From positions 31,147 to 95,146 of the forward strand of contig JBGSIS010000028.1 in NCBI GenBank assembly GCA_041742395.1: 64,000 nt of DNA, given 5' to 3'. A program made the translations under genes and the position numbers. This DNA comes from Candidatus Saccharimonadales bacterium (GTDB lineage: Bacteria; Patescibacteriota; Saccharimonadia; Saccharimonadales; JACQNP01). Under the pieces are notes generated by a model, which saw only the letters and a list, made by a program, of their open reading frames with translations, made no database searches and was not told where the DNA came from. The number at the start of each line of letters is the position of its first letter. Position 1 is the first letter of the stretch. Below are positions 12,510 through 56,600 of this stretch, piece after piece.

Positions 12510-12869
12510 TTATACTTTATTCTTAATCTTTAAAAGTACTTTACGGTGGATACCTTTTGTACCATGAGTTTCCGAATATTTCTTAATCTGATTCTTTAAC
12601 TTAGCTTCTACAATATCAACTGCGGCATACATATTGATAGTGGTTTCTTTTGCTGTTAAAGTTTCGTTCGGAAGATACAATACTACTTCACAGGTTCGCT
12701 TTTTATTTGACTTTTCTTTAGCCTCTTTTAAGAATATTTCAGCATGCGCACTCTCTCTTGCACTCCTTGGAGCGTACTTATCTAGTTTTCCAATTTTGCT
12801 GGTAGCGTACTTTTTAAGATCAGCATCTATTTCGTAGTGTACTCCCTTAATTTCTAATTTTTTAATCAT
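12510..12869 (-). CDS. hpf: ribosome hibernation promoting factor (short HPF/RaiA type)
   Basis: 119 aa. S30AE-family pattern (EIKGVHYEIDADLKKY...MYAAVDIVEAKLKNQIKK). Conserved hpf-secA-prfB order. Confidence 0.85.
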   Translation of the reverse strand: MIKKLEIKGVHYEIDADLKKYATSKIGKLDKYAPRSARESAHAEIFLKEAKEKSNKKRTCEVVLYLPNETLTAKETTINMYAAVDIVEAKLKNQIKKYSETHGTKGIHRKVLLKIKNKV

Positions 12870-14164
12870 ATTATTTCCTTTCCGCCCATAAAGGGTATTA
12901 AAACTTCCGGCACAACAACATCTCCGTCGGCAGTCTGATAATTTTCCAAGATGGCAATCAGAGGACGCTGAGATAATGCCGTTGCATCGTTTGTGTGAGC
13001 CAGCTCCAAAGAGCCATCTTGTTTTCTAACACGAGTGTTCATTCGCCTAGTCTGATAATCAGTTATCAAATCAGCTGTATGTGTTTCTCTATACTTCCCT
13101 TGTCCAGGTAGCCAAACGTCAATATCGACACCACTTGCATTTGGTCCGCCAATATCAGCAGTACATTTTTTTACAACCCTATAAGGTAAGCCTAACTCTT
13201 TCATTATACTTTCTTGAACAGCAATCATTAAAAGATGTTCATCATAAGAAGTTTCGGAGTTAGTAAAACTCTCCATTTCCATCTTGTTAAATTGATGCAT
13301 TCTCAAGAAGCCTTCCATGTCTTTGCCGTACGTTCCAGCTTCTCGCCTAAACGCTGTTGTGTAGCCAACATATCTTATAGGTAACTGGCTTTCATTAATA
13401 ATTTCGTTTAGATAAATTGGAGCCATCACATGCTCAGCGCTAGCATTAAGCCATAAATCATCGTCGGCAAGTTTATAGGTCTGTTCTTCTTTATTTAATC
13501 TTCCTGTCGCTTCATAAACTTCGGTTTTAGCAACAGCTGGAGGTTGAACAGGAATAAAAGGCTTGTCATCAAGATCAAGATTATTGTCTTTTATAAGTTT
13601 GCTTATGAATTTTCTATCAGTTAATTTAGACAGTACAAACATATTCATTGCCCAATCAAGCATGACTAAATCTCCCATAAGATATGCAAACCTTGAACCA
13701 GCTACTTTTGCCGCACGTTCTTTATCTAGCCAGCCCTTAGCCTCTGCAATTTCTGCATGATTTTTTGGTTCAAAATCAAACTTAGTAGGTTCGCCTACAA
13801 TTTTAGCAACTACGTTATCATCTTCACTTGAGCCGACAGGTACATCATCTAGTGACATATTAGGAACTTGTTTATATAAACCGAGCCATTTAAGATCAAT
13901 ATCATTAAACTCCGGTTCTTTCTGAGAAAGGAGCTGCTTGATTTCCACACCTCGTTTTATCTGTTCTTCAGTTGGTTTTCCGGATTTCTTAATATCATCA
14001 GTGTTCTTGTTTCGACTTTCTCTTATAGTGTCAATTTCAGACTGCAATTTGCGACGCCTAGAATCTAATTCTATCAACGCATCAATATCAACTTTATACC
14101 CTTTTTGCTCAGATTTTTGTTTTACCAAGTCTGGATTATCTCTAATGTACTGAATATCTATCAT
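12866..14164 (-). CDS. serS: seryl-tRNA synthetase
   Basis: 432 aa. N-terminal coiled-coil arm and class II motifs (FRREAG, MHQFNKMEME, GQGKYRETHT...). Confidence 0.95.
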   Translation of the reverse strand: MIDIQYIRDNPDLVKQKSEQKGYKVDIDALIELDSRRRKLQSEIDTIRESRNKNTDDIKKSGKPTEEQIKRGVEIKQLLSQKEPEFNDIDLKWLGLYKQVPNMSLDDVPVGSSEDDNVVAKIVGEPTKFDFEPKNHAEIAEAKGWLDKERAAKVAGSRFAYLMGDLVMLDWAMNMFVLSKLTDRKFISKLIKDNNLDLDDKPFIPVQPPAVAKTEVYEATGRLNKEEQTYKLADDDLWLNASAEHVMAPIYLNEIINESQLPIRYVGYTTAFRREAGTYGKDMEGFLRMHQFNKMEMESFTNSETSYDEHLLMIAVQESIMKELGLPYRVVKKCTADIGGPNASGVDIDVWLPGQGKYRETHTADLITDYQTRRMNTRVRKQDGSLELAHTNDATALSQRPLIAILENYQTADGDVVVPEVLIPFMGGKEII

Positions 14165-14192: not shown

Positions 14193-15194
14193 TTATAGGT
14201 TAAAAATTATCAAAAAAATAAAAAGCAAAGAAAATTCAACAAATATGAAGATACCAATTAATACTAGCGCTATTTGATTAATTGTACTATTAACCATTAT
14301 TTTTGTGTCTTGATTGGCATTTTCGGATTGTAAAAATTTATTTCTCATCGATGTATTCTCATCATCAAATAATGATACAAAGTTTATTGTTTTGTCTTTA
14401 TGAGAAATTTCTGTCGAAATTTTATTAACAAAATTAATTGATTTCTCAATTGACCTTTTGTTAATATACTCATCTTTAAATGCAAAATATATACAATTTT
14501 GAACAATCTCAATGATTAAATCGTCTTTAAACTCACTTATACACAAAAGTATATCTGGGCTTAAAACACTCAACGTTTCGATTTGCTGTTCTTTTTGATA
14601 AAATATGTCGAATAGATCGCTGAATCCTCCTTCGGCCCTATAGCTCTCTGTTGTATTGCCCATATCTAAACTCGTGACATTATTTTTTGAGATAACTATT
14701 AAATGAGGAAACTTCCTGTTTAAGAATAACTTGAAAATTATCATTTTATTTATGTATTTGTCTTTAGAATGCCCCTCTTGAGTCCTGTAAACTGAAAAAT
14801 ACATTGGCTTGGAATCTAATTTTATATTTAACACTGAAGTAATCAACATTCCTCCTGGCTGATATACTGCTGGCGGTACATAACTGTAGATATTTTCGTT
14901 TTTAACCTCTAAGTTATTTACAACTTCAAACTTTTTCCATGCATTTCTAAAATCTTTTTCTTCTGTCATATTTCTAAAAATAAATATGAATATAACTATA
15001 GGTACAAATAAAATCATTCCTACAGTAATGGAAATAAATGGCGCATATAAATAAAATCCAACGATACCAGATAATAAAACTAAAATTATATAAACAGTAA
15101 AAAACCGATTAACTACTCTTGATCTATTTGAAATCTTATCCAGATTATCTAAAGATTCAAAATTTATATCTTCTAAATGTTTATTTGTTTCCAC
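14193..15194 (-). CDS. hypothetical membrane protein (2 N-terminal TM + 1 C-terminal TM)
   Basis: 333 aa. By eye this is the most AT-rich stretch in the window. Hydrophobic segments FTVYIILVLLSGIVGFYLY, ITVGMILFVPIVIFIFIF and ALVLIGIFIFVEFSLLFIFLIIF. Overlaps the upstream nuclease gene by 14 nt. No motif recognised. Confidence 0.5.
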   Translation of the reverse strand: METNKHLEDINFESLDNLDKISNRSRVVNRFFTVYIILVLLSGIVGFYLYAPFISITVGMILFVPIVIFIFIFRNMTEEKDFRNAWKKFEVVNNLEVKNENIYSYVPPAVYQPGGMLITSVLNIKLDSKPMYFSVYRTQEGHSKDKYINKMIIFKLFLNRKFPHLIVISKNNVTSLDMGNTTESYRAEGGFSDLFDIFYQKEQQIETLSVLSPDILLCISEFKDDLIIEIVQNCIYFAFKDEYINKRSIEKSINFVNKISTEISHKDKTINFVSLFDDENTSMRNKFLQSENANQDTKIMVNSTINQIALVLIGIFIFVEFSLLFIFLIIFNL

Positions 15195-15982: not shown

Positions 15983-16678
15983 CTATTTTATCAATTTACT
16001 GACAGCTATGATAGCTGCTGTTTCGGCCCTTAGAGTAAAATTGCCAATATTAATATTTGCTATGCTTTTATCTTCAAATATCTGTCTTTCAGAATCCGAC
16101 CAACCACCTTCTGGACCTATCAAAACTCCAACAATTTTATTTTCTACTTCTTGTCTCTCACCTTCTTCGTCTGCAACTAATAGAGTTATCTTACCGCTAT
16201 ATTCATCGATAGCTTTTACCAGATTCAATGGCTCTCGAATATATGGCACATCACTTCGCCCAGACTGTTCAGCAGCCTCAATTGAAATTTTACGCCAACG
16301 TTCAATTCTACCTGATGAAACATCAGTCCTGTCACAACGTTCGGAAATTATTGGTACAAAATTACTGACGCCGAGCTCTGTTCCTTTTTGAATAATCCAG
16401 TCGTTTTTATCTTTTTTAAGTAAAGACCATAGTAAATATATTTCAGTTTCGGGAAGTTTCCTGTTCAAGTCTGTGGTCATTTTTAAGTGAGCCTCTTGAG
16501 CAGTTATTTCAGTAATTTCGTATAGTCTATCTGTTCTCTCTCCATCAAATAAAACTATTTTTTGACCTGAGCGGAAACGTAAAACCTTATTCCACTGTAA
16601 AAGTAGTTCTTCATCGTGCAACCAAAAATCGTGCTTTAAATCAATTCTATCGCCAACATAAAATCTATGTATTTTCAT
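15983..16678 (-). CDS. rsmE: 16S rRNA (uracil1498-N3)-methyltransferase RsmE
   Basis: 231 aa. PUA-like N-terminus (HRFYV) and SPOUT C-terminus (LIGPEGGWSDSE...LRAETAAI). Confidence 0.85.
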   Translation of the reverse strand: MKIHRFYVGDRIDLKHDFWLHDEELLLQWNKVLRFRSGQKIVLFDGERTDRLYEITEITAQEAHLKMTTDLNRKLPETEIYLLWSLLKKDKNDWIIQKGTELGVSNFVPIISERCDRTDVSSGRIERWRKISIEAAEQSGRSDVPYIREPLNLVKAIDEYSGKITLLVADEEGERQEVENKIVGVLIGPEGGWSDSERQIFEDKSIANINIGNFTLRAETAAIIAVSKLIK

Positions 16679-17913
16679 TTTAATATCATAACAGCTAAGG
16701 ACTCAATGTGAGGAGTTTTTGGAAAAAAGTTAAACCCCTTAAGAATTTTAACATCGTAACTATCTTCTAATAGCTTAATATCTCTAGCTTGAGTCACGGG
16801 ATTACAGCTTAAATATACTATTTTTGATGGTTTAACTTCCAATATCTTTTCAATTACATTTTTATGTAAACCAGCTCTTGGTGGGTCTACAATTAGAACG
16901 TCTTTACTTGTAATTAAGTCGACGGCTTTCTCGCTACTAGATAATAATACTTTGGATGATTTATCTACATTTCTAACTGCATATTCATGGTTAGATTCAT
17001 CGATATCTACAAATACTTTGGTTTCTCCAATTGGAACACCAATCGAACCAACTCCGCAGTAAAAATCTATTTTAGTTTCACCCTGGGTCTCTTCTTTTAT
17101 CTCACTTAATACTTTTTCAAAGACATCTAAGTTAACTTGAAAGAATGAGTAGACATCATAATTTAGCTCTGATTCGAGTAGTTTATCGCTTAGTGATATG
17201 TCTCCAAAAGTATAAAGGACCTCTGTTTTAACGCTAGCTGGACTTTTAGGATTGGAGTAGCAAACTTCTATTCCTTTAAAAGCTCCGTCTAACTCACCTA
17301 TTTTTTTAAATTCTTTATTTTTTACAAATAAAGCTATGGCGACTTCACCCTGTCGGTTGCAACGAACTATACAGGTCTTTAAATCAGAGCCCCTTACTTT
17401 GTTGTTGTTTAGGATCGATACCAATTTATTAGCTGCTGCATCTATTTCTTTTCTAGCGATTGAACTTCCACTTACTACAATCTTTCGATGAGTTCCCCTG
17501 TGATAAAGAGCTAGCGATAACCCATCGTCATCAGCCCAAAATGAGTACTCCATTTTGTTTCGGTAATTCCATTCGCTAACTTGGTCGTCGAATTGTACTT
17601 TTTGAACATGGACTTTTTCTCTTTCAAATGTCTCTTCGAGTATTAACTTTTTATAGTCGTTTTCTGATTCAATATCCATAATCTGCCAGGGGCTTGTACT
17701 CATATATGAATCGTCTTTTGGCTGTCGCCTAGAAATAGAAGGCTCAATAATTTCTTCGGCAAATCCCTCAGAATAATCTTTTCTTTTCTTACTAATCTTT
17801 AACTTTACTTTTTCACCCGGTAAACTATTCCAGACAAAAACTACACTTCCATAGGATAATCGGGCTAAACCCTGGCCGCCAAAAACTAACTTCTCAATTT
17901 CTACCGTTTCCAT
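16675..17913 (-). CDS. RNA (uracil-5)-methyltransferase, RlmD/RumA/TrmA family
   Basis: 412 aa. TRAM-like N-terminus, FFQVN, SAM pocket DFYCGVGSIG, DPPRAGL, catalytic YLSCNP. Confidence 0.8.
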   Translation of the reverse strand: METVEIEKLVFGGQGLARLSYGSVVFVWNSLPGEKVKLKISKKRKDYSEGFAEEIIEPSISRRQPKDDSYMSTSPWQIMDIESENDYKKLILEETFEREKVHVQKVQFDDQVSEWNYRNKMEYSFWADDDGLSLALYHRGTHRKIVVSGSSIARKEIDAAANKLVSILNNNKVRGSDLKTCIVRCNRQGEVAIALFVKNKEFKKIGELDGAFKGIEVCYSNPKSPASVKTEVLYTFGDISLSDKLLESELNYDVYSFFQVNLDVFEKVLSEIKEETQGETKIDFYCGVGSIGVPIGETKVFVDIDESNHEYAVRNVDKSSKVLLSSSEKAVDLITSKDVLIVDPPRAGLHKNVIEKILEVKPSKIVYLSCNPVTQARDIKLLEDSYDVKILKGFNFFPKTPHIESLAVMILK

Positions 17914-17916
17914 TAT

Positions 17917-18867
17917 TTATTTAGCAAGAAAGCCGACAATCAGAACAACTGCGAATAGAGTCCTTAGCACTAAGCTATTAACAGCATACTTCTTTTCTAC
18001 TTGCTCATAGTCAGACAAGTTTCCCTTTTTCTTAAGAGATGCTAATTGTAGTTTGCCTAATAGTCCTGCACCTGCAAGCATCACTACATATAGAACATAT
18101 ACATACCAAGGACTTCTTAACTCACCGAATACGTAGGTGAAAACTGCATATGAAAGAATAACTAGCCAAGGTAGTAGTCCTGAAAGCATTCCTAAATAAT
18201 ATTCTCTTATTGCGGGAGTTCCCTCTTTAACTGTCCTCTTTTCAGCAAACCATCCTGCAAGCATAGTAATCACCATAAGACCGCCAATTAATTTCAAAGT
18301 TCCTAAATCTAAAACTCCACTTAATATCGCAATTGTTTCGATCATAATCGCCCCGACAATTGCCATATCAATCCAGCGAGTAGTCATAATTCTATCTTTT
18401 AATTGTTTTGTATGACTTAATTTTAATCTTGTCAAATATAAGACTGGAACGATTACAGAAATCAAAGCAACAGCCATTACTAACCACTTTGCTTCTATGT
18501 CTACAATACCTTGTGTTGCTGGTGCAAATTGCGTACCGTTCACGCTTTTAAGCTCATCCTTACCCCAGTAACCAACACTTATCTGGAAACTCAAGCTATT
18601 CATTAGGAAAAATGCCGCAGCGGCAAGAGCCAAGTAAACAGCTATGCTGCCTGCATAAATTCTCTGTAATGGTGACATCTTTGCAAAAGCGGTCTTCTTT
18701 TCTTCCTTTTTAACGCTTTCGACTTTTACTGATTTTACTGCTGGTTTTTTAGTAACTTTAGTACTCGTACTTTTCTTAGAAGTTTTTGCACTTTTTGCTT
18801 TAGTTACTGCCTGTGATTTATTTGTTGTTTTAGTTTTTGCCTTGGTTGATTTAGTAGATTTAGCCAT
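17917..18867 (-). CDS. heliorhodopsin-like 7-TM protein with Lys-rich N-terminal tail; predicted Schiff-base Lys replaced by Arg
   Basis: 316 aa. About 60 aa of K/T/S/A-rich tail, then 7 hydrophobic helices. Blocks RWIDMAIVG, AGWFAEKRT, GMLSGLLPWLVILSY and EKKYAVNSLVLRTLFA match my recollection of heliorhodopsin 48C12 (RWVEYSLSS, FGWLQEKYT, GCIAGIVPWIGLLIY, ERAYIVLSLVAKSALAW). Confidence 0.6.
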   Translation of the reverse strand: MAKSTKSTKAKTKTTNKSQAVTKAKSAKTSKKSTSTKVTKKPAVKSVKVESVKKEEKKTAFAKMSPLQRIYAGSIAVYLALAAAAFFLMNSLSFQISVGYWGKDELKSVNGTQFAPATQGIVDIEAKWLVMAVALISVIVPVLYLTRLKLSHTKQLKDRIMTTRWIDMAIVGAIMIETIAILSGVLDLGTLKLIGGLMVITMLAGWFAEKRTVKEGTPAIREYYLGMLSGLLPWLVILSYAVFTYVFGELRSPWYVYVLYVVMLAGAGLLGKLQLASLKKKGNLSDYEQVEKKYAVNSLVLRTLFAVVLIVGFLAK

Positions 18868-18873
18868 GAAAGA

Positions 18874-18882
18874 ACTATAGCA
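18874..18882 (-). promoter_or_regulatory. extended -10 element (TGcTATAGT), 6 nt upstream of the heliorhodopsin-like ATG
   Basis: Minus strand reads TGCTATAGT-tctttc-ATG, which puts the expected transcription start at the A of the ATG. No Shine-Dalgarno sequence. Confidence 0.3.
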
Positions 18883-18945
18883 TACTTCCGAATAAAGGAT
18901 TGCAGTTTTATTGTCTACGATATTTCTTTTTAAATATACTTGATA

Positions 18946-20316
18946 CTACTCTGTTCTAAGTGCTTCAATCGGGTCAAGCTTTGCAGCTTTTCGAGCCGGT
19001 AATAATCCAGCAATTATTGCGATTATAACTAGTAATATAATCAGAATCATAATTTGTTTTATATCAAAAATAAGAAGACTATCGTCGCCTAACTCTAGCT
19101 TTTTAGTAATCCATGGATTAAGTAATGTACCAATTACGTAAGCCGAAATTGCACCTATTGCACCACCTATAAAGCCAATCCACGCAGCCTCAAATCTAAA
19201 TAACCTTCCAACATCTCTGCCGCGCATTCCGAGAGCTTTCATTAACCCAATTTCCCTGGTCCTTTGTAGTACACTTATATACATAGTATTTATTATCCCG
19301 AAGACTGATGCAATTAATGCTATCATTCCGAAGGTTACGACGATACCTCTTAAAACTCCGATTATTTGATTAAGAAATTCTTGAGTATCTTTAACGCTTT
19401 GAGCAGAATAACCCATATTTTTTAGTTTATCCTGAACGGCAAGTAACTTTTCATTGTTTTCGCCATCTTTAACTTTTGCAAAAACATATGAATATTTTTG
19501 ATAACCAGGTGTACCTTCTTTGGTAATATCGTTTAATCTTTTAGTATCTTCAATTCCGGAATACATATAAAGTTCTGTTCCCGGCTGTGAAGTTATCGGT
19601 TTTTTTAGAACCGCTACAACTGTAAAGTCTTCAGAATATTCAGTCTGTTGCTGTAATTGATTTACCGATTCTTGATTTACGAAAATTCCATTCTGAACTT
19701 GCTCTTGACTAACCGCTGATTGAGGCGGACGATTTACTACCAACTTTACCTGCTTGCCAACAGCATCTTGTGCATCACTAAAACCTAATGACTCTAAATA
19801 TCCTTCGGGCAACAAAATCTGTTTATTACTCAAGTTTTTTGGAATTGATCCAGCTAACAAGTCTGGTTTTTGGAAAGGACTAAAAGTGCCTACAACTCCG
19901 ACAAATTTTTTCTGATCATCCCTAGTAATGTACTTCAAACTAACAGAAGCACCCTCTCTCACAGATTCAACACCTTCGGTATTTGCAATTTTGTTGATAT
20001 CTTCAGAGTCTAAAAGTTTAATTTGAGTAGGAGCTCCGGCTTGAGAGGCAACCTCGCCGAATGATTCGTCATATTCTTGAGGCTTAGAATTATCAACTCT
20101 ATTAAATACTGCTTCATCTGCAGACACAATTAATTCAGCAGGGTCGAAGTTGTCGGAAATAATTTGGCCGACAAACTTCTCAGCTCCATTACTTGCTGAC
20201 AAAGTGAGTGTTAAAGCAAAAGCACCTACACCGATTGCAAGTGAAGTTAATAATGTACGTGCCTTAGCACTCAATAGTGAACGATTAGATCTTCGGAGTG
20301 TGTCGATTAACTTCAT
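18946..20316 (-). CDS. ABC transporter permease, MacB/FtsX-like fold
   Basis: 456 aa. N-terminal TM, about 280-aa periplasmic-type domain, three C-terminal TM helices of the FtsX family (REIGLMKALGMRGRDV). Overlaps the ATPase gene by 4 nt. Confidence 0.85.
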   Translation of the reverse strand: MKLIDTLRRSNRSLLSAKARTLLTSLAIGVGAFALTLTLSASNGAEKFVGQIISDNFDPAELIVSADEAVFNRVDNSKPQEYDESFGEVASQAGAPTQIKLLDSEDINKIANTEGVESVREGASVSLKYITRDDQKKFVGVVGTFSPFQKPDLLAGSIPKNLSNKQILLPEGYLESLGFSDAQDAVGKQVKLVVNRPPQSAVSQEQVQNGIFVNQESVNQLQQQTEYSEDFTVVAVLKKPITSQPGTELYMYSGIEDTKRLNDITKEGTPGYQKYSYVFAKVKDGENNEKLLAVQDKLKNMGYSAQSVKDTQEFLNQIIGVLRGIVVTFGMIALIASVFGIINTMYISVLQRTREIGLMKALGMRGRDVGRLFRFEAAWIGFIGGAIGAISAYVIGTLLNPWITKKLELGDDSLLIFDIKQIMILIILLVIIAIIAGLLPARKAAKLDPIEALRTE

Positions 20317-21035
20317 TTTTTAACTCCTTTTACGCTCAATTTTTTAGACCTTTGCTTTTCAATAACCTGAGTGATTTCACCGTCCTTAATTTTTATTTGC
20401 ATTTTGCACCTTTTAGAAAGTTCTTCGTCATGAGTAACGATCATTATCGTACATCCAAGTGTTTTATTCAGCTCAAAAAGTAACTGAATAATCTTTTCTC
20501 CTGTTGAAGAATCTAAGTTACCAGTTGGTTCATCGGCAAAAATTATTTTTGGCTTATTAACGATTGCCCTAGCTATATCTAACCTTTGCTTTTGACCGCC
20601 AGATAGATCCTTAGCTTTAGAGTCAATCTTTTCTGCAAGGTCAACCCTTCCTAAAGCCTTCTCGACCAATGTCCTTCGTCGTCTAGCCGGGACTCCTGCT
20701 ATTTCAAGAGGCAATGATACGTTTTGATAACAAGTTTGATTTCCTTCAACAAAAAAAGCCTGGAAAATAAAACTCATTTCTGTAGCACGGAATTTATCTA
20801 TTTCTTTTTTCTTCATGGAATGTAATTCTTTACTATCTATCAGAACGCTACCAGAATTTGGATGATCGATACCGCTCATGACATGCATTAAGGTACTCTT
20901 ACCACTTCCACTTTTTCCCGTTAGAGCAACAGTATATCCCTTAGGAATAGTCAGGTTTATATTATTTAGGGCAATGAAAACATTTTCCTTTTTTCCATAA
21001 ACTTTTGTTAAGTTTTTTACTTCTATCAATTTCAC
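20313..21035 (-). CDS. ABC transporter ATP-binding protein (MacB/LolD-like)
   Basis: 240 aa. Walker A GKSGSGKST, signature LSGGQKQR, Walker B IIFADEPTGNLD. Confidence 0.9.
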   Translation of the reverse strand: MKLIEVKNLTKVYGKKENVFIALNNINLTIPKGYTVALTGKSGSGKSTLMHVMSGIDHPNSGSVLIDSKELHSMKKKEIDKFRATEMSFIFQAFFVEGNQTCYQNVSLPLEIAGVPARRRRTLVEKALGRVDLAEKIDSKAKDLSGGQKQRLDIARAIVNKPKIIFADEPTGNLDSSTGEKIIQLLFELNKTLGCTIMIVTHDEELSKRCKMQIKIKDGEITQVIEKQRSKKLSVKGVKK

Positions 21036-21079: not shown

Positions 21080-22039
21080 TTAAGCTAGCTCTATATCTAA
21101 CTTTTGACTTGAAACAGGAAGATATAGTGGCTGACCTTCCTCCAATAAAAGTAACTCCTTAGACTCATCATCCAAATCAAGCACTAAACATAATCCTGCT
21201 TTTTTATCTATTAAAGATTTATCACTGGTTATTCTGTTTTTTCTAAGTTCTGTAGTTTCTAACATATCTATCGTTAAACAACTTCCAACTATCAATCTTT
21301 GTCCAATACTAATTGGTTTAAGTTCTGGTTCAAATTTTATCGGGTCAACGAAGGTTGTATAGCCGTATTGTGCCTTAATTGACATTTCCTGTTCAATTAA
21401 ACAAGAATGTATCACAGACTCATATATGAACTGTTCGATCAGATTATCTTGTTTTGATTTTGTTAAACGCCTAAATTTTGTATCATTAACCATTTTCGCA
21501 AACTCATCAGACAAAAACTTAAGTATTATCAAACCAGATTGAGGATCTTCAAAATCGAAATATTCAGATAGATAAAAAGGATTGAATGAATCTTCTATAT
21601 CACTAATTACAGTAACTGAAGAATTTACTATAAAACAATTAAATATATCTATGGTATTTTTAAAAGTCGGTTGTTGAAATCCATTTATTTGGTCTGTCTT
21701 CACTTGATGAGTCAGTACAGGACCATCGTCTTCCATAATTATCGCCACACCAAGATGCAGTCCATATGAGACAGTTTCCTGTCTTGACTGACCAATTATA
21801 GTAGAATATTCTTCGTTAAATTCTGGAACATAGGCCACACCCATCATTGCCACAGATTTATTTATGTATGGACAACTAGAGTCTAGTTCGTCTATAACAC
21901 TATTTGCAAAATCATCAGTAAATTCATCTTCATCGTAAACGTCTCTAAGTAAAATTTGATTTAAACGAAGTTTTTCGTGAAATAGCTCTTTAGCACTTTC
22001 TTGAGAATGATCAATTTCCGGAATGTCTAGATTTTCCAA
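21080..22039 (-). CDS. hypothetical acidic cytoplasmic protein
   Basis: 319 aa ORF with no TM segment and no motif I recognise. Confidence 0.45.
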   Translation of the reverse strand: MENLDIPEIDHSQESAKELFHEKLRLNQILLRDVYDEDEFTDDFANSVIDELDSSCPYINKSVAMMGVAYVPEFNEEYSTIIGQSRQETVSYGLHLGVAIIMEDDGPVLTHQVKTDQINGFQQPTFKNTIDIFNCFIVNSSVTVISDIEDSFNPFYLSEYFDFEDPQSGLIILKFLSDEFAKMVNDTKFRRLTKSKQDNLIEQFIYESVIHSCLIEQEMSIKAQYGYTTFVDPIKFEPELKPISIGQRLIVGSCLTIDMLETTELRKNRITSDKSLIDKKAGLCLVLDLDDESKELLLLEEGQPLYLPVSSQKLDIELA

Positions 22040-47719: not shown

Positions 47720-50700
47720 TTAGTTGCCAAGTTCAGTTAGATAGACAGTCACATTAGTAGGCGTATCAGTAAGTGTTGCTCCTTTAGCAATGTTGCTAGA
47801 ACACACTGTATATCTAACTAATGCAGCCACGCCTGGGTTATGTACGAAAGTACCGACTATCTGGTAAGGATCATTGTTATTAGTTGTGAATCCAGCTACC
47901 ATTGGCTTTCCAACCTGAAGGCTTGTAGTACAGTTTGGCGCTGAACCGTCAGTCGTATAGACAACTCTGGCGCCTAACCAAGCATCGTTATTCGTGTTAG
48001 CTAGTCCGCCAATGTGAATTGTTACTTGAACATTGGCAGTAGTCTTGTTGGTAGTAATGTTTGGTCTAGTAGCATCGTTAAACAACTCTGTTGTATTTAT
48101 GTCACCCGCAAACGCGGCTGGAGTTGTATCATCAAAATTTCCTGTATCTGGTTCTGGTGTAATACAGTCATTCCAGGCGCTGTTTTCGAAACATCTAAAT
48201 TTATTGTTTGTACTATTGTAGTATTGAGCCCCTGCTACGCCTGTTGGGTCGGCACCGGTTTTACTATCAAGTACGAACAATACTCCAGTAGCATCACCAG
48301 TAGATGAGCCTACTTGGATTATTGAACCTGCGGTATCAACAGTAAAGAAGTTGCTTGTTCCAGCAGCGTTCCTAACTTGGAGTGCTGTTGTTGAATCAGT
48401 ACTAATCTGTGTGGCACCTCCGTTGGCTATAGTAAAGACACCGTTACCATTCTTTTGTAGTGTAAGGATGTTGCCACTTGCGCCCGTCTTGTTTGCGAAC
48501 AATGAAGCAGATGTTGAACTATCTGTGACTGAAAGCCTTCCACTTGCAGATGTACTTCCAATTGCTACGTTACCACTTCCACTAAAACTAAATACGTTAC
48601 TGCCCAAGTCAATGTCACGACTTGCCGACAATGCGCCTCCTATATTAATGCTATTAGTAGTTCTGGTTAAGCCATCGCCGAACGTAAGTGGATTTTCGTA
48701 GTCGGTTCCAGCTGTTGCTAATGACAGAGTACCTGATCCATCAGCTTTTATAATTCCGCCAGCACTTAGTCCACTAAATGTAATTGAACCGGATGATGTA
48801 AGTCCGGTAATGTTCTGTAATGATCCTCCGTTAGTCAGACGGTTAACCCCGGCAGTAAACAGTGAACCCTCGCTAATATTTAGGTTTGCTACGCCTGTAC
48901 CAGAGTTAGTAAGACTCAAGCTAGTATCAGCAGCATCATTGAGATTAAACGATAATGTACCGCTTGCTGTTCTTAATATAGATGTATCCGTTCCGTCGAT
49001 TACAATTGCATTACTGGCCGAGTTTAGAGTTAAGTTTGATGAGCCACCAGAAGCTAGTGTAAGTGCACCTGTACCAGTAATGTTACCGACGTTTGTTAGA
49101 TTACCGCTATTATCTATTCGAGTAATACCTGCTGTTTGTAGAGTTCCTGCAGAAGTATTTATGTCGCCTGATCCGGTAAACGAGGTTCCACCAGAGATAG
49201 CCCCAGAAAGCGTAAGGGCACCAATATTAACTAAATTACCGCTATTATCAATCCTATCAGTACTGTTAGTTTGGAGTGAGCCACCAGTAGTGTTAAAGTT
49301 TCCAGAGCCTGTTACAGTTGTTCCGCCGCTGATTGAGCCGTTTAGAGAGATAGTCGTAAGTCCAGATATTGCACCGCCAGCAGAGATACTTCCGATATTC
49401 GATAGATTACCTGAGTTATCTATTCTTGTTATGCCTGCTGTTTGTAGAGAGCCTGCTGAAGTGTTGATGTTTCCAGATCCGCTAATTGTAGTTCCGCCGC
49501 TTATTGAACTACTTAATGTCAGGGTGGTTACACCGCTCAATGATCCACCGGCACTAATACTTCCAATATTTGTTAGATTGCCAGAGTTATCGATCCTTGT
49601 AGTACTATTTGTCTGAATAACTCCTCCTGTTGTATTTATGTTTCCAGAACCGGTAAACGAGGTTCCACCTGATACAGCACCCGAAAGTGTAAGAGCTCCA
49701 ATGTTTACTAGATTGCCGCTGTTATCGATTCTGTCGATACTGTTGGTTTGGATTGAGCCACCAGAAGAGTTAAAGTTTCCAGAACCTGTTATAGATGTGC
49801 CACCACTTATTGAGCCGTTTAGAGAAATAGTCGTAAGTCCAGATATTGCACCACCGGCTGAGATACTGCCAATATTTGATAGATTACCACTATTATCTAT
49901 TCGAGTTATGCCTGCTGTTTGTAGTGCCCCTGCTGAAGTGTTGATATCACCTGATCCGGTGAATGATGTTCCGCCAGAGATAGCTCCAGACAATGTTAGT
50001 GTTCCTATATTAAGTAGGTTTCCGGAGTTATCTATTCTATTAGTACTATTAGTTTGGATTGAACCACCAGTAGAATTAAAGTCTCCTGAACCAGTTACTG
50101 TTGTTCCTCCGCTGATTGAGCCACTAATGGATAAGTTAGTAACGCCAGAAATTTCACCAGCTTCGGTGATACCGCCAGAGTTATTGTCTAAGCCCCCAGT
50201 ATTTGACAATCCACTTGCTGAAATTATTAATCCTCCGCTAAACGTCTTCTGTCCAGTAAAGGTCTGAAGCCCGCTAAGTAATGCAACGTTGGCACTTAGC
50301 TGTCCATCATCAAGAGTACCAGCTGCAATTGCCGAAGCCGATATGTTTGTAATCCCTGCACCATCACCAGTTAACTCACCCGTTACGTTCAAGTCGCCAC
50401 TAATGTTCACAACTCCTGTACCGCTATTTGCCTGTAATGATAAGTTGCCTGTACTTATTAGGTTTCCGTCGCTTAAAGTTGTACTTCCCGCTCCGACAAC
50501 TACACCACCCAAGAAATAACCCTGGAAGAATCTATTTGCTAAGTTTGTATAGTCTGTATCTGTAGCGCCAATGTTTTGAATATTGTATTTTTCTATTGTT
50601 GCACTGGCGTCGTAGCTTACTGCTGGCGATACAGTTAGGGTTGCAGTTCCACCACCCGAAACAATTCGAGTGAAGTAATCCTGTCCAGCGTTATTGATGT

Positions 50701-52348
50701 AAATCACATCATTATTGGCAAAGGCTGTGCCTGTAAGGTTAATTATTGTGGTGTTAGAACCTGGTGTTCCAGTTGCAGTAGCGGTTGTGCCAGTCGCAAC
50801 ATTATCGGCTATCAAACTACTCGATAGTGTTGTTAATCCTCCGATATCTACCGTTCCGGTTGTTGAGAGGTTTCCTGCTGAAGTTATTTGCAGAGCATCA
50901 CTAGTACCTACGGTGAACAGTGCTGCTGGGCTGGCATCACCAACACCCACATTTCCGTTTGCAAGGATTGTTAGCCTTTCAACACCGTTGGTTTCAAGAC
51001 CCAAGTCATTCGAATCATTAGTACCAAGTACAGCTTTTGCACTAAAAGTATTTCCATCCTGGATAAACGCCTGTGCAACTCCACCACCTACTGACCTTTG
51101 AGCTTCAACAAAGCTTCCTTGCCTGACAGTTACATTGGCAGCATTTGCAGTGTTCTGAGACCACTGCAATGTTACGTTTCCAGGTGTAGCTCCGTTAATA
51201 ATCGTTCCAGTAACTTCGTAAACGTCGTCAGCTGTAAGTCCGGTCATAATGCCCGTGGCGGCGCCACATGCAAGATTTCCATAGGTATTTGCACTATCGA
51301 CATCATATGCACCCACCTTACAAGTTGCCCCTCCCGGAGCGGTAACTGCAAATTTAAGATCTGGAGTTGCTGGGACGTTCGCTTGAATAACAAACCTAAA
51401 ATTCCAAGTTTCATTTGCACCAATTGAGAAAAACAATTGATCGTCGTTTTGTAACGTTGCGCCAGTATTTTGTGTAGGTGGCACACCAGAATTGTTTACA
51501 GTTTCGTCTGCTGTTTTTGTTTTATTAACAAACGGATTTGTAATTCCTGAGCCTGCAGTTAGTGACGTCCAACCAGACCCAGTATATCCTTGCAAATCCG
51601 AACCGTTCCAGCGAATTGTTCCAGGTATAGTTGTAGATGTATTGCCCAGTGTAATACTGCTGCCCAAAGTTGCAGCTCCGAGTTTATCAACCGTAAACAC
51701 ATCACTACCATCACCCTGAAGTTGGATTAAACCACCAGATCCTGTTTGGTTTAATCTAAGTCCAGCGAGAGTGCTACTGAACGACTGAATCGTAACAGGA
51801 GCTTTTTGCAAAATATCACTTGCACCCAAAGTCCCTGAACCATTGGTCAGGCTATCGGCTTGCCCGGCGCGAAACGCATAAGGCACGGCAGTTAGCTTAA
51901 GCCGAGGCGACATTTCACCATCACCATTGACGTTCATAGTCAGCCATTGCTCTTGACTCCAATCGATAGTTCCTGGAAACGAAGTTGCACTTCCTAGCTG
52001 AACACTGAAGTAACCGTTTTTTACAGTTACAGCACCTTGTGTCTCAGTCCACTGAGTTGTTCCACCGGCACTAGCGTTGTAGAGATTGAACTCCATGCTG
52101 TAAGTTCCGTCAGAAACAACATTGCCGGCTGAATTCGACAACCGGCCCTGGAAGTTCAAAGTGCTGCTAGTAGCTGCTGAAGCTTCGCGCGTATATGTAC
52201 GCGTATACACACCTGCGCGCGTATAAGAAAATACAGCGAAGGAAATCAAAAGCAAAAAGAGCCCTAGCCCCATCTGGGGTAGAACTCTTCTGAAATTTAT
52301 CTTGCAACATATACGTCGCAAAATGATATGCGTCAGTCTTGCAATCAT
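47720..52348 (-). CDS. giant repetitive fibre-like surface protein (signal/TM anchor, tail-fibre-like N-terminal domain, 7 tandem G/S/T/N-rich repeats)
   Basis: 1542 aa. Hydrophobic MGLGLFLLLISFAVF near the N-terminus. Gly/Ser/Thr/Asn-rich throughout with no cytoplasmic-type motifs. Start may be ATG 52348 or ATG 52273. Confidence 0.7.
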   Translation of the reverse strand: MIARLTHIILRRICCKINFRRVLPQMGLGLFLLLISFAVFSYTRAGVYTRTYTREASAATSSTLNFQGRLSNSAGNVVSDGTYSMEFNLYNASAGGTTQWTETQGAVTVKNGYFSVQLGSATSFPGTIDWSQEQWLTMNVNGDGEMSPRLKLTAVPYAFRAGQADSLTNGSGTLGASDILQKAPVTIQSFSSTLAGLRLNQTGSGGLIQLQGDGSDVFTVDKLGAATLGSSITLGNTSTTIPGTIRWNGSDLQGYTGSGWTSLTAGSGITNPFVNKTKTADETVNNSGVPPTQNTGATLQNDDQLFFSIGANETWNFRFVIQANVPATPDLKFAVTAPGGATCKVGAYDVDSANTYGNLACGAATGIMTGLTADDVYEVTGTIINGATPGNVTLQWSQNTANAANVTVRQGSFVEAQRSVGGGVAQAFIQDGNTFSAKAVLGTNDSNDLGLETNGVERLTILANGNVGVGDASPAALFTVGTSDALQITSAGNLSTTGTVDIGGLTTLSSSLIADNVATGTTATATGTPGSNTTIINLTGTAFANNDVIYINNAGQDYFTRIVSGGGTATLTVSPAVSYDASATIEKYNIQNIGATDTDYTNLANRFFQGYFLGGVVVGAGSTTLSDGNLISTGNLSLQANSGTGVVNISGDLNVTGELTGDGAGITNISASAIAAGTLDDGQLSANVALLSGLQTFTGQKTFSGGLIISASGLSNTGGLDNNSGGITEAGEISGVTNLSISGSISGGTTVTGSGDFNSTGGSIQTNSTNRIDNSGNLLNIGTLTLSGAISGGTSFTGSGDINTSAGALQTAGITRIDNSGNLSNIGSISAGGAISGLTTISLNGSISGGTSITGSGNFNSSGGSIQTNSIDRIDNSGNLVNIGALTLSGAVSGGTSFTGSGNINTTGGVIQTNSTTRIDNSGNLTNIGSISAGGSLSGVTTLTLSSSISGGTTISGSGNINTSAGSLQTAGITRIDNSGNLSNIGSISAGGAISGLTTISLNGSISGGTTVTGSGNFNTTGGSLQTNSTDRIDNSGNLVNIGALTLSGAISGGTSFTGSGDINTSAGTLQTAGITRIDNSGNLTNVGNITGTGALTLASGGSSNLTLNSASNAIVIDGTDTSILRTASGTLSFNLNDAADTSLSLTNSGTGVANLNISEGSLFTAGVNRLTNGGSLQNITGLTSSGSITFSGLSAGGIIKADGSGTLSLATAGTDYENPLTFGDGLTRTTNSINIGGALSASRDIDLGSNVFSFSGSGNVAIGSTSASGRLSVTDSSTSASLFANKTGASGNILTLQKNGNGVFTIANGGATQISTDSTTALQVRNAAGTSNFFTVDTAGSIIQVGSSTGDATGVLFVLDSKTGADPTGVAGAQYYNSTNNKFRCFENSAWNDCITPEPDTGNFDDTTPAAFAGDINTTELFNDATRPNITTNKTTANVQVTIHIGGLANTNNDAWLGARVVYTTDGSAPNCTTSLQVGKPMVAGFTTNNNDPYQIVGTFVHNPGVAALVRYTVCSSNIAKGATLTDTPTNVTVYLTELGN
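49044..50128 (-). repeat. in-frame tandem coding repeats (7 units of about 45-56 codons; higher-order period about 477 nt)
   Basis: Unit consensus ISGGT(S/T)xTGSG(D/N)xN(T/S)xxGxxQTxxxxRIDNSGNLxNIG... The string TGAGCCGTTTAGAGA recurs at 49334 and 49811. By-eye nucleotide identity between higher-order copies is high. Confidence 0.85.
52187..52225 (-). repeat. three copies of (G/A)CGCGTATA (plus-strand reading) encoding YTR x3, just after the hydrophobic N-terminal helix
   Basis: Copies at 52187-52195, 52199-52207 and 52217-52225. The protein reads SYTRAGVYTRTYTREA. Confidence 0.7.
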
Positions 52349-53672: not shown

Positions 53673-56600
53673 CTATGGTAGAGGACATTGCGCGTCATTA
53701 GATTGACGACAAGGAGTATCCAGTGGTTGTTTTTCGCCGCCCGTGAATGTCTTTCCGTGCCTCAATCTCTTTGATGGATCTGACGTAAAGAACAGAGACA
53801 AATCGGTAATTGTTGGTCCTCTTGCGGTGTCTTCTGGGTAGCCAAAAGTTTTAGATGCATCGATACTAACATAGAAGTAGTAGTACCTGGCACAATCTAT
53901 GTCAGTACCACTGCCATCTTTTGGAGTGTACGTTGCCACGTCTCCAAGTGTTACATCTCCATAATCTGTTTCTTGCCCCCATGTTGACATATCTGCACTA
54001 CCACAATCAGTAGGCACACCGTCAATGTCGTTCATTGATCTATATTTAACTTGCCACCTAGCACCGATCGAGTTATCGACACCATTCATTAACCACGAGT
54101 TTGGAAATACATCACTATCTGTATCTATCATTCTAGAATAAATAGCTACTTGTGGTTGCGACTTAACGGTCGAGTAATAATGCTTATTAGTGCTCAATAC
54201 CGAGCTACAACCTCCTCCCATTAAGTACATTTTTCCATTAGAGTATGCCAGAGCGGCACCATACCTATCTCCTGTATACCTGGTGTTTGTTTCATACCAC
54301 TCACCAGTACCAGTAGGGTTATTACCAGTAGCTATTGTTGTATTGGCGCTTATCGGCGTTATCAAAGTATTTGGTAAACAAGTGGTTGAAGCGGAACGCC
54401 CGCCAACCAAGTAAATATACCCATTGGCAGAAACGGCATCAGCATCTCTTATTGGCCCAGGTAAACTATTAGAGTATGACCAAGAACCTACGGAACCATC
54501 CTGAATGGTATAAATTGTGCCAGAATTAACTGTTTTACTTACATCTACAGTAATCGATGTTGTACTACCAAAGGCTGTGACAGTCGCCTTCGACCCGTCA
54601 GGATACTGAATGGTGCTGCCCACCATTGTTGAGGCAAAAGTAGTCCCCGAACCAGTAACGGTGCTCCCAGATTGTGAAATTGTTCCAGTCTTATAACCTA
54701 GCGAAGCAAACTGACTATCACTCAGGTAGTTCGAGCCATCGAAACCTCCAAACAGATAAAGATTATTGGCGTAGGCCGTAACTGCCGGACCTTGTCTTGC
54801 GACATTAAATGCCGTAGACGAACTCCATGTTCCAGACATATTACCACCAGAGCTCATCTTTGGGCTTACATAAACAACTGAAGAAACAGCGGCACTATCA
54901 TCGATTCCACCAACTATGTAAATTCTATTGTCCCAAACAGTTCCGCCTGAATAGGCCCTATCACCAGGCAATGTCGATGAAGCGGCTGTCCATGAACTTA
55001 CGTTACCTGAAAGTAAAGTACCATAGTAAATATCATTTTTTTCGTCTCCAGTACTATCTATACCTCCAATATAATATAGAGTTGTGTTCGTATCACCCGC
55101 AACCTCTAGCTGACCAAAAGCTCTTTGTCCTGGCATAGTTGAATCCGTAGTATTGTTCCAGGTTCCGACAGTACCATCCGAAGAACTCAACTGGGCAAAC
55201 TGAGTGTTGTCTGTTACTGTGCTACAGCTTATATCAGTACAGCCCCCCGCAACATATAGATATCCATCATGAACTGCAGCACTTGCACCAATTCTGTCTG
55301 TTGAAGTCGCATAATCTTGGTCGCTTTGAGCAGTATAGTCGTTAATAGCTCCGCTGTCGTTATTATATAGCTGGAAAGTTTGAATAGCGGGCTCAAAACT
55401 ACTACAACTATTAGGACTGTACCCTACATCACAACCCCCAATTACGTATGCATAAGAGTTAGAAACCACCACGCTTAATCCCCATCTTTGGTTAATCTGA
55501 ATACTGGAAGTAATGAAGGGATCTACACTTCCATCGCTAACATTCATTTTTGACCATTCAATAAATGGAATAACTTGAGAGGTGGTTGCATCAAAGCCAC
55601 CCAATGAGTAAATATGACCATTATATCCAAAGCTAAATCCTCTTCTTCTTCCGACATTTAACTTGTTGGGTGATTCTGTCCAGTCACTTCCTGATACCGC
55701 TACAATATTGTTACTATTGTTAATTTCGGCATATAAAACATCATCTTTGTCAGCTTCTGCAGCACTAAAACCACCAATTAGATATACGTAGTTTGCATAA
55801 ACTGTACCGGAATGAAGCCCCAATCCATCGGTTCCCCCAGTACCTGGAGTAGAGTCAATCTGTAGCTGACTTGATGTACTACAGCCAGACACACTTCCAG
55901 TTGTTGTTATGTTGCATTTATATACCTCTGTTTCGTAGTCATTACTACATGACGGTCCTGTGCCCATAGTTCCGCATCCACCAAAAATAAATAAGTTGCC
56001 TGGATTTGAACCAGCAAATAAAGGATTAGCTCTGGCGTATGCGAATGTATACGAAATATCTTCTGCAACACCGGCAGTAGTTAAGTCAACGGCAGTCCAT
56101 GCACCACCCAGACTTCCGTTAGTATTCGTAGTATTATAGTATATCTCGCCAGTCATACCACCCGTGCTATCAAATCCACCTACAAGGTATATTCTGTTAT
56201 TAAATACAGTAACGCCAGAAGCAGCAATTCCGTCAGCTCCATTTATAGTATTCGTACTATCAACACACCAAGAACCATAACTTGTACCAGAACAAGTAGA
56301 TGGCTTAGAAAGAGAACCGTCTGAGTTAATTGATACAAATGCGGTATTACTTGACACATTTTCAGAAGTTGGAGTATTTGTACCGCTATTACAGTTGTAT
56401 TCTGTGCAACCGCCAAAAACGTAAAGATAGCCGTTTAAGATTGTTGATGCGTTAAGCATATGCCCTATTTCACCGGCACCATCACCTGGGCACGCATCTG
56501 GATCGCAATCAGTATCCGAATCATCTCCTGGTAAACTACAGTTCGTAGGACTTCCACCCGTACAAGTACCAGAACCATTTCCGCTAGAAATGTTAACTGT

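Follow-up and report, generated by a model that had tools for sequence, protein, structure and literature searches.

Within a stretch of 64,000 nucleotides from a Candidatus Saccharimonadales bacterium (contig JBGSIS010000028.1), called here the window at its full length, the minus-strand open reading frame (ORF) at 17917-18867 is a true heliorhodopsin (HeR) homologue. The window protein belongs to the HeR sequence and structure family and yet, by alignment, lacks the lysine of transmembrane (TM) helix 7 that defines a functional heliorhodopsin, an arginine (Arg302) standing in its place. We consider it probable that this is a light-blind HeR, in which an ion pair between the arginine and an aspartate imitates the protonated Schiff base, and which has kept a function that needs no retinal. 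To our knowledge, little of the physiological role of HeRs has been settled since they were discovered in 2018; a gene that is no less conserved than the housekeeping genes beside it, and that has nevertheless lost this lysine again and again, would offer a direct handle on that function.

The Pfam Heliorhodopsin profile (PF18761) matched residues 78-312 of the 316-aa product over profile positions 11-240 of 242, with an E-value of 9.9e-28 and a score of 97.5 bits, the gathering cut-off being 26.7; for the NCBIfam HeR equivalog NF038020 the score was 94.3 bits, below its 100-bit cut-off. A phmmer search of the PDB sequences returned heliorhodopsins only (TaHeR, 6is6/7clj, E~1e-14; 48C12, 6su3, E=2e-13), and its alignments reproduced all four of the 48C12-like blocks that a sequence-only reading of this DNA had pointed out; the 316-aa translation likewise agrees exactly with the one given there. 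The AlphaFold2 (AF2) model, built with 95 homologues, had a mean pLDDT of 87.8 and comprised seven helices plus a long beta-hairpin between helices 1 and 2; in Foldseek it superposed on TaHeR 6is6 with a target-normalised TM-score of 0.90 and an rmsd of 1.6 A, type-1 rhodopsins being far weaker matches (E~1e-3). The sequence-only reading had claimed a heliorhodopsin fold, and among its proposed checks were a Pfam search and a model superposed on a HeR crystal structure; both bear the fold out, the Pfam match lying far above its cut-off and the model superposing overall on 6is6. The distribution of charges (+18 in the N-terminal tail; K/R to D/E of 5:1 in the BC loop, 3:1 in the FG loop and 2:4 in the AB loop) fits the predicted N-in, inverted topology, with the basic loops cytoplasmic, and is consistent with what had been claimed on this point as well. 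When the family HMM was run against all six-frame ORFs of the window only 17917-18867 matched, and no second rhodopsin was found.

At 22-24% identity and TM-scores of 0.83-0.90, the window HeR resembles 48C12 and TaHeR (PF18761; 6su3, 6is6) in its seven-helix fold, its long AB beta-hairpin, its predicted N-in orientation, its acidic counter-ion position and its equivalents of R104, W105, E149, P172, W173, Y226, E230, Y233 and S237 of 48C12. It differs from them in the arginine at the Schiff-base position, in a lysine-rich tail of 63 residues and in its NCBIfam score below the cut-off. It also lacks H23, H80, W246 and Q247, as do the Lys-bearing members of the Saccharibacteria HeR subfamily.

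In the phmmer alignment with 48C12, SLVLRT pairs with SLVAKS, which places R302 at K241, and RWIDMA pairs with RWVEYS, which places D167 at E107; the TM7 motif SxxxK is not matched, the residues being S298-L-V-L-R302. Both the arginine (codon 17964-17962) and the aspartate had been assigned to these positions beforehand, and the phmmer and MAFFT alignments agreed, the arginine codon being AGG, a single transition from AAG. For a residue map, the 48C12 sequence (identical to PDB chains 9ljj/6su3) was aligned with TaHeR and the 95-sequence family alignment, the roles of the mapped positions in 48C12 being those given by Kovalev et al. 2020 (PMC7049168). Besides the Schiff-base lysine (K241 to R302) and the counter-ion (E107 to D167), the map pairs S237 with S298, S76 with S137, R104 with R164, W105 with W165, E149 with E209, P172 with P233, W173 with W234, Y226 with Y287, E230 with E291 and Y233 with Y294. 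Changed positions are H23 to Y78 and H80 to P141 (histidines lost), Y108 to M168, N138 to M198, I142 to M202, F206 to A267, N207 to G268 and A210 to G271. The absence of the two pocket histidines, remarked on earlier, was thus confirmed, but it does not mark the lysine-less state, the Lys-bearing members of the Saccharibacteria subfamily likewise having F/Y and P/A at these positions. The statement that the C-terminal residue is the sole other lysine near TM7 was wrong: this helix has K292 and K293 as well, at its cytoplasmic start, neither of them conserved.

A word-indexed homologue search returned 94 proteins, all with PF18761, of which the few named ones were from Candidatus Saccharimonadales or Saccharibacteria; in the joint alignment the Schiff-base column held K 65 times, R 30 times, and Y and S once each. 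The comparison of homologues for K versus R that the sequence-only reading had suggested showed the arginine in all 18 of the closest ones (52-90% identity, independent assemblies included), conserved under selection. In a neighbour-joining (NJ) tree the window HeR and these 18 form one clade of 19, all with Arg (hereafter the Arg clade), and other Arg lineages are scattered among Lys forms. The counter-ion in the Arg clade is D in 11 members and E in eight. Residues M168, M175, T201, W234 and Q274, which line the pocket, are present in 19/19 members and M198 in 18/19, and the clade has Y71, Y78, A134, M168, M198, R211, T212, Y224 and L275 as fixed residues of its own, set against the Lys-bearing HeRs of the same locus. 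A relocated Schiff-base lysine was considered and rejected: K192 (TM4), the only fully conserved helix-core lysine, appears family-wide by the majority consensus of the alignment, and no Arg-clade-specific conserved lysine was found in the membrane core in the alignment of this clade.

The arginine codons at six orthologous loci were AGG, AGG, AGG, AGA, CGT and CGA, the Lys orthologue having AAA; because they span the AGR and CGN families, the arginine has been held through synonymous changes. The dN/dS (NG86) of the TM domain between the window and the 90%-identical P0001 was 0.051, at a dS of 1.22 that is near saturation, and that of the tail was ~0.25. Identities of the HeR and of the RlmD-like, RsmE and SerRS products of its neighbours were, in this order, 91/84/86/70, 67/67/76/69 and 61/55/60/61% in three comparisons within the Arg clade. 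By these sequence measures the Arg-form gene is not decaying and is under strong purifying selection, changing at a pace equal to that of its housekeeping rRNA methyltransferase neighbours. Lys-bearing HeRs at the same locus are only 42-44% identical, the figure for neighbour genes being 53-67%. With respect to the Lys orthologue P0021 the HeR domain drops to 44% identity and the neighbours keep 53-60%; this drop points to a burst of change around the K-to-R transition, apparently followed by strong constraint.

Neutral decay, with the gene a relic or pseudogene or the arginine an assembly or sequencing error, is hardly credible given these data, and we rejected it. The change from lysine is a single transition, reductive evolution is at work in candidate phyla radiation (CPR) genomes and roughly a quarter of the representative clusters of the subfamily lack the lysine, all of which would favour decay; nevertheless, Arg is found in 19/19 clade members across 52-90% identity and independent assemblies, it is kept in both codon families, the TM-domain dN/dS is 0.05, divergence equals that of the housekeeping neighbours, the reading frame is intact and the AF2 model is confident.

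The gene neighbourhoods of 10 loci carrying homologues at 29-91% identity were then compared (R-types P0001, P0002, P0004, P0008 and P0016; P0072 and P0037 as independent R lineages; the K-type P0021; and P0089, a canonical type with Lys). They share a common block, in the order LysRS, a stretch of ABC/FtsX, MsrA and variable genes, HeR, a TRAM/U5 methyltransferase, RsmE, a PD-(D/E)XK nuclease, in some a hypothetical gene, SerRS, HPF and SecA. Since the same locus holds R-, K- and canonical-type HeRs, the Arg HeR is the positional orthologue of the Lys-bearing HeR, its lysine having been lost in situ, and not an extra paralogue. The canonical-type P0089 (L031 3845-4798; relatives P0092-P0094) has H23, H80 and SLVAKSALAWQ, together with the same TKAKTKT tail at the same locus, so that the divergent Saccharibacteria HeR subfamily probably evolved in situ from a canonical HeR. 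In one of its relatives, P0094, the Schiff-base position is occupied by Ser and that of the counter-ion by Ala.

With the TM domain as the only query, so as to keep the bias of the tail out, HMMER was run exhaustively against 1.84 billion cluster representatives and gave 545 matches at E<=1e-3. Among 143 newly retrieved representatives of the top 150 of these 545, the Schiff-base column was K in 103, R in 17, another residue in 20 (T 4, Q 4, V 4, L 3, I 2, A 1, Y 1 and H 1) and gapped in three, and roughly a quarter of the representative clusters in the Saccharibacteria HeR subfamily are without the lysine. On an NJ tree with 232 sequences, Fitch parsimony gave, as rough counts, ~11 K-to-R and ~14 K-to-other changes. 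The recurrence of the loss is clear from these sequences, the lysine having been lost many times independently, roughly 25 by this approximate count. An acidic counter-ion was kept in 45 of 47 Arg forms and 137 of 165 Lys forms, and in 4 of 22 forms with other residues (Fisher test of Arg against other, p=7e-11, kinship ignored). The equivalents of R104/W105 and E149 were conserved in all classes, whether Lys, Arg or other. Additional loci were retrieved by a profile search of metagenome contigs with the family alignment (18 loci, mostly short) and by a scan of genome contigs with the single window protein (3 loci).

On this basis we propose that, in this Saccharimonadales lineage, a change of the AAG-to-AGG type turned the retinal-binding lysine into arginine; with no lysine in the pocket no retinal Schiff base would form, and the protein would be light-blind. 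The guanidinium of Arg302 would replace the protonated Schiff base and, with Asp167 and Ser298, preserve the buried ion pair that ties TM3 to TM7. With such a pair as a substitute for the Schiff base, arginine would be favoured, and neutral replacements would go with loss of the counter-ion. The former retinal site may be filled by the clade-specific Met168, Met198 and Met202 and by a TM6 of small residues (Ala267, Gly268 and Gly271), and the protein would be fixed in a single conformation. It would thereby carry on the retinal-independent part of HeR function, most likely the binding or regulation of a partner through the conserved cytoplasmic-half residues R164, W165, E209, Y287, E291 and Y294 together with the polycationic tail. 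With no retinal synthesis, and with the closest relatives living in activated sludge, these bacteria could probably do without light modulation: Saccharibacteria have been reported to be without a retinal-synthesis gene (PMC9296517), and JGI metagenome 3300056999, the source of homologues 90% and 65% identical to the window HeR, comes from a wastewater nutrient-removal pilot plant (PMC10949500), which is consistent with a life in little light.

The sequence-only reading had seen in this protein a HeR repurposed for a light-independent role. A light-independent role is what we too would naturally infer from an arginine conserved under selection; repurposing, on the other hand, was not upheld, given the ancestral locus and the cytoplasmic-half residues that are kept family-wide (R164, W165, E209, Y287, E291 and Y294), with which a retained ancestral, retinal-independent part of HeR function fits better than a new one. 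A large lysine-less clade under strong purifying selection at the ancestral locus argues for a useful retinal-free job of the HeR scaffold, and the recurrent, charge-compensated loss, with Arg where the counter-ion is kept and neutral residues where it is lost, argues likewise.

Several points weigh against a light-blind HeR held by an Arg-Asp pair. The contact between Arg302 and Asp167 and the filled pocket are deduced from alignment only, the NJ and parsimony event counts are only rough, and the counter-ion statistic ignores phylogeny, 19 of the 47 Arg forms being a single clade. The ABC transporter upstream is of the MacB type and not of the studied OmrDE type, the upstream side of the locus being variable, and the habitat is deduced from one identified sample. 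Finally, the conserved pocket of the Arg clade fits a ligand site as well as the packing of an empty one, and retinal or another hydrophobic ligand could bind there non-covalently.

We hold it unlikely that the Arg form still senses light or a ligand in this manner, with retinal, a carotenoid or a lipid bound non-covalently in the pocket or in an enlarged TM5-TM6 fenestration, although the Arg clade strongly conserves its pocket positions and further points speak for it. The replacements of F206, N207 and A210 by A267, G268 and G271 fall at the fenestration of lipid entry in 48C12 (PMC7049168), where a carotenoid site has been proposed for most HeRs (bioRxiv 2025.11.27.691015), and haloarchaeal K-to-R opsin-related proteins adjoin transducers and have been proposed as sensors (PMC4915679). 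Against it, the arginine fills the space of the Schiff-base linkage, the site looks filled in view of several substitutions by bulky Met, retinal synthesis is not known in Saccharibacteria (PMC9296517) and the closest relatives come from activated sludge.

A further explanation is that the protein works independently of a partner, either as a pathway for ions or protons, passive or gated, or as a transporter, with Arg302 and Asp167 as its selectivity or gating pair; this seems to us quite improbable. Some viral HeRs transport protons, as cited in PMC10308929 and PMC11109279, and a conserved buried charged pair together with polar E209, E291, Y287 and Y294 lining the cytoplasmic half would suit a pathway. 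However, the extracellular half of HeRs is hydrophobic (PMC7049168), and no transport had been seen in the bacterial and archaeal HeRs tested so far, according to Pushkarev et al. as cited in PMC7049168. In the window HeR this half has gained further Met, Leu and Val, and the Arg clade shows no new polar pathway residues specific to it.

Lysine-less opsins are already known among type-1 rhodopsins, fungal opsin-related proteins being further examples, and their HeR counterparts were without description in the literature searched. A close parallel to a light-blind HeR is group A of the haloarchaeal type-1 opsin-related proteins (Becker et al. 2016, PMC4915679), in which Lys is likewise replaced specifically by Arg in a conserved clade with an otherwise intact opsin; group B of the same study has hydrophobic replacements, as do other lysine-less HeR lineages. 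Unlike the window HeR, these proteins are type 1, N-out and archaeal, and lie beside HAMP/MCP transducers. Rh-noK and the lysine-less FArhodopsins of freshwater, as presented in PMC10308929, are also naturally lysine-less microbial opsins under selection; for these and the fungal proteins, regulatory, chaperone-like or scaffold roles without retinal have been proposed. They differ from the window HeR in being type-1, and Rh-noK stands in tandem with a functional pump paralogue according to that source. Nearer at hand, the Lys-bearing Saccharibacteria HeRs at the same locus, such as P0021, share the neighbourhood, the tail with TKAKTKT and the loss of H23 and H80, and unlike the window HeR keep the lysine (AAA).

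With respect to partners, OcHeR, which regulates the ABC transporter OmrDE (PMC11109279), has a conserved cytoplasmic Arg, R102, equivalent to R164 of the window HeR; R102 is required for binding of the transporter, and this binding raises kcat/Km 1.8-fold already in the dark. The ABC transporter just upstream of the window HeR recalls this pairing. Regulatory HeRs of the OcHeR type differ from the window HeR in that they bind retinal and are light-modulated. Partnerships of HeR with glutamine synthetase (GS) and with photolyase are cited in PMC11109279; the genes of GS, photolyase and an OmrDE-type ABC transporter are not neighbours of the window HeR, and the ten HeR neighbour groups which that study lists include neither rRNA methyltransferases nor MsrA.

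The N-terminal tail of the window HeR contains 21 Lys, no Arg and three acidic residues in its 63 positions, for a net charge of +18, and is 78% K/S/T/A. Tails of 45-82 residues are present in nearly every homologue of the first search; they begin M-A-[TK]-[ST]-T and hold the near-invariant T-K-A-K-T-K-T-T, of which K11, K13 and T14 are conserved in at least 90% of the sequences. Among 237 proteins of the set from the TM-only search, 155 carry a tail that is 35 or more residues long and made up of Lys to 20% or more, and some Saccharibacteria HeRs have none. Because the tail occurs in K-, R- and canonical-type proteins, it is a feature of Saccharibacteria HeRs generally and not of lysine loss; the Lys-rich tail described earlier is therefore real, and its presentation as a histone-like trait of a lysine-less protein did not hold. 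It is larger and more highly charged than the positive-inside rule would require, and its invariant motif suggests specific recognition. Within the window and the 10 related loci, the TKAKTKT motif was found on HeR genes only. A protein search with the tail alone gave 98 candidates, none of which scored, probably through low complexity, and is uninformative on other families. At the nucleotide level, the motif ACC AAG GCA AAA ACT AAA AC (18823-18846, minus strand) is almost invariant, synonymous sites included, AAG GCA being identical in 9/9 loci even between orthologues at 31-42% protein identity, which hints at a constraint on the RNA or DNA in addition to that on the TKAKTKT peptide.

The conservation of the tail raises the question of whether the HeR domain is mainly an anchor for it, the tail tethering nucleic acid, ribosomes or anionic lipid, possibly in connection with the presumably co-transcribed rRNA methyltransferases, and retinal being an add-on. 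The presence of the TKAKTKT tail in K-, R- and canonical-type Saccharibacteria HeRs, the gaps of 3-17 nt between HeR and the RlmD-like gene in 7/10 loci and the repeated loss of lysine with the tail kept are in line with this idea. Nonetheless, we do not think it likely, since some Saccharibacteria HeRs are without the tail, constraint is tighter on the TM domain than on the tail (dN/dS 0.05 against 0.25), which indicates more than an anchor, and synteny in small genomes need not mean functional coupling. The light-blind HeR with its Arg-Asp pair could also be extended, as a tentative and on balance doubtful generalization, to Saccharibacteria HeRs and perhaps all HeRs: their core function would be carried out without retinal by a membrane-embedded scaffold whose invariant cytoplasmic R-W/E cluster and polycationic TKAKTKT tail hold or regulate a cytoplasmic partner at the membrane, and light sensing would be an optional layer, discarded ~25 times with Arg wherever the counter-ion was kept. 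Nucleic acid, ribosomes or the rRNA-modification enzymes presumably co-transcribed with HeR might then be that partner.

The literature searched held no description of HeRs without the lysine or of Lys-rich HeR tails, an early mention in Pushkarev et al. 2018 being possible. The CPR survey of Chiriac et al. 2022 (PMC9166423), in whose count Saccharimonadia have 80 HeRs, checked for SxxxK and reported only Lys motifs, and a HeR reconstruction study of 2026 removed sequences without lysine. As surveys of this kind select on SxxxK or discard lysine-less sequences, the class may have been filtered out. Under the tentative generalization, the natural Arg forms would be ready-made "dark-locked" HeRs that could reveal HeR function. 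The Arg-Asp pair, in which nature would have imitated the protonated Schiff base with its counter-ion, could serve structural studies of a HeR held in a fixed state. A second handle on function would come from the conserved motif of the polycationic tail in Saccharibacteria, where very few membrane proteins have been characterised.

The features of the locus are collected in the following table.

Table. Coordinates of the HeR gene, its key codons and the surrounding elements (window positions unless a related locus is named).
Feature	Position	Strand	Basis or remark
HeR-family ORF, 316 aa, Arg at Schiff-base position	17917..18867	-	PF18761, PDB HeR matches, AF2 model
Seven-helix HeR domain, residues 64-316, with HeR-specific AB beta-hairpin (93-125)	17920..18678	-	AF2 model, Foldseek
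N-terminal Lys-rich tail, residues 1-63, predicted cytoplasmic and disordered	18679..18867	-	Composition, pLDDT ~55
Tail motif T-K-A-K-T-K-T-T, residues 8-15, near-invariant	18823..18846	-	Homologue alignment
Codon AGG, Arg302, position of Schiff-base Lys (K241 of 48C12, K238 of TaHeR)	17962..17964	-	phmmer and MAFFT alignments
Codon GAT, Asp167, counter-ion position (E107 of 48C12)	18367..18369	-	Alignments
Arg164-Trp165, family-invariant R104-W105 of 48C12	18373..18378	-	Alignments
Glu209, E149 of 48C12, invariant in all K-less forms examined	18241..18243	-	Alignments
Extended -10-like box TGcTATAGT, 6 nt before ATG	18874..18882	-	Conserved in orthologous loci; candidate promoter
Upstream block CGTAGACAATAAAACTGCA, ~35-50 nt before start	18901..18919	-	Conserved in five closest Arg-clade loci
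TRAM + (uracil-5)-methyltransferase (RlmD/RumA-like), next downstream gene	16675..17913	-	Pfam
RsmE-type 16S rRNA methyltransferase, 4-nt overlap with RlmD-like gene	15983..16678	-	Pfam
MacB/FtsX permease, upstream	18946-20316	-	Pfam
ABC ATPase, upstream	20313-21035	-	Pfam
msrA copies at related loci	L004 7436-7945; L006 2022-2531; L009 4513-5022; L010 4437-4946; L007 5915-6454; L008 7383-7913; L029 7487-7966

The HeR stop codon ends at 17917 and the next ATG is at 17913, so that the gap of 3 nt to the rRNA methyltransferase genes, claimed beforehand, is real, and Pfam identified these as RlmD-like and RsmE. Across the 10 loci the methyltransferase follows HeR directly in eight, with gaps of 3-17 nt in seven, and one or two genes lie between them in the other two. 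Of the operon link proposed in the sequence-only reading, the adjacency with short gaps is thus conserved, while a coupling in function does not follow from it, Saccharibacteria genomes being highly syntenic.

The -10-like box is conserved upstream of HeR in L004, L006, L007, L009, L010, L001 and L003, and no Shine-Dalgarno sequence was found between it and the ATG (window 18868-18882). Its conserved position, 6 nt from the ATG and with no Shine-Dalgarno sequence, suggests a candidate promoter from which a leaderless HeR mRNA would be made. In a promoter and terminator consensus scan the counts were not above shuffled expectation, and the box went unreported because it has no -35 match. The conserved CGTAGACAATAAAACTGCA block is too distant from the box for a -35 element and may be the binding site of a regulator. 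At gathering thresholds Rfam gave no match in the whole window.

A msrA gene (PF01625) lies one to three genes upstream of HeR in 7/10 related loci, the K-type included, and tblastn found none in the window, over its whole 64 kb and including the 18868-18945 gap upstream of HeR. This neighbourhood may be tied to a link between HeR and oxidative stress, which Bulzu et al. reportedly proposed in 2021.

On the downstream side, the SerRS of the window (12866-14164, minus strand) is 70% identical to that of the P0001 contig (L009 9707-11011), the flanking genes being 84-95% identical; serS may have undergone recombination or replacement in one lineage. Conserved hypothetical genes without a Pfam match flank the block at 14193-15194 and 21080-22039, both on the minus strand; the product of the former (333 aa) is an apparent membrane protein, and at its place L004, L006 and L007 have unannotated genes of about the same length. 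Elsewhere in the window, two very large ORFs are found on the minus strand, at 53673-60173 (2166 aa) and 47720-52348 (1542 aa).

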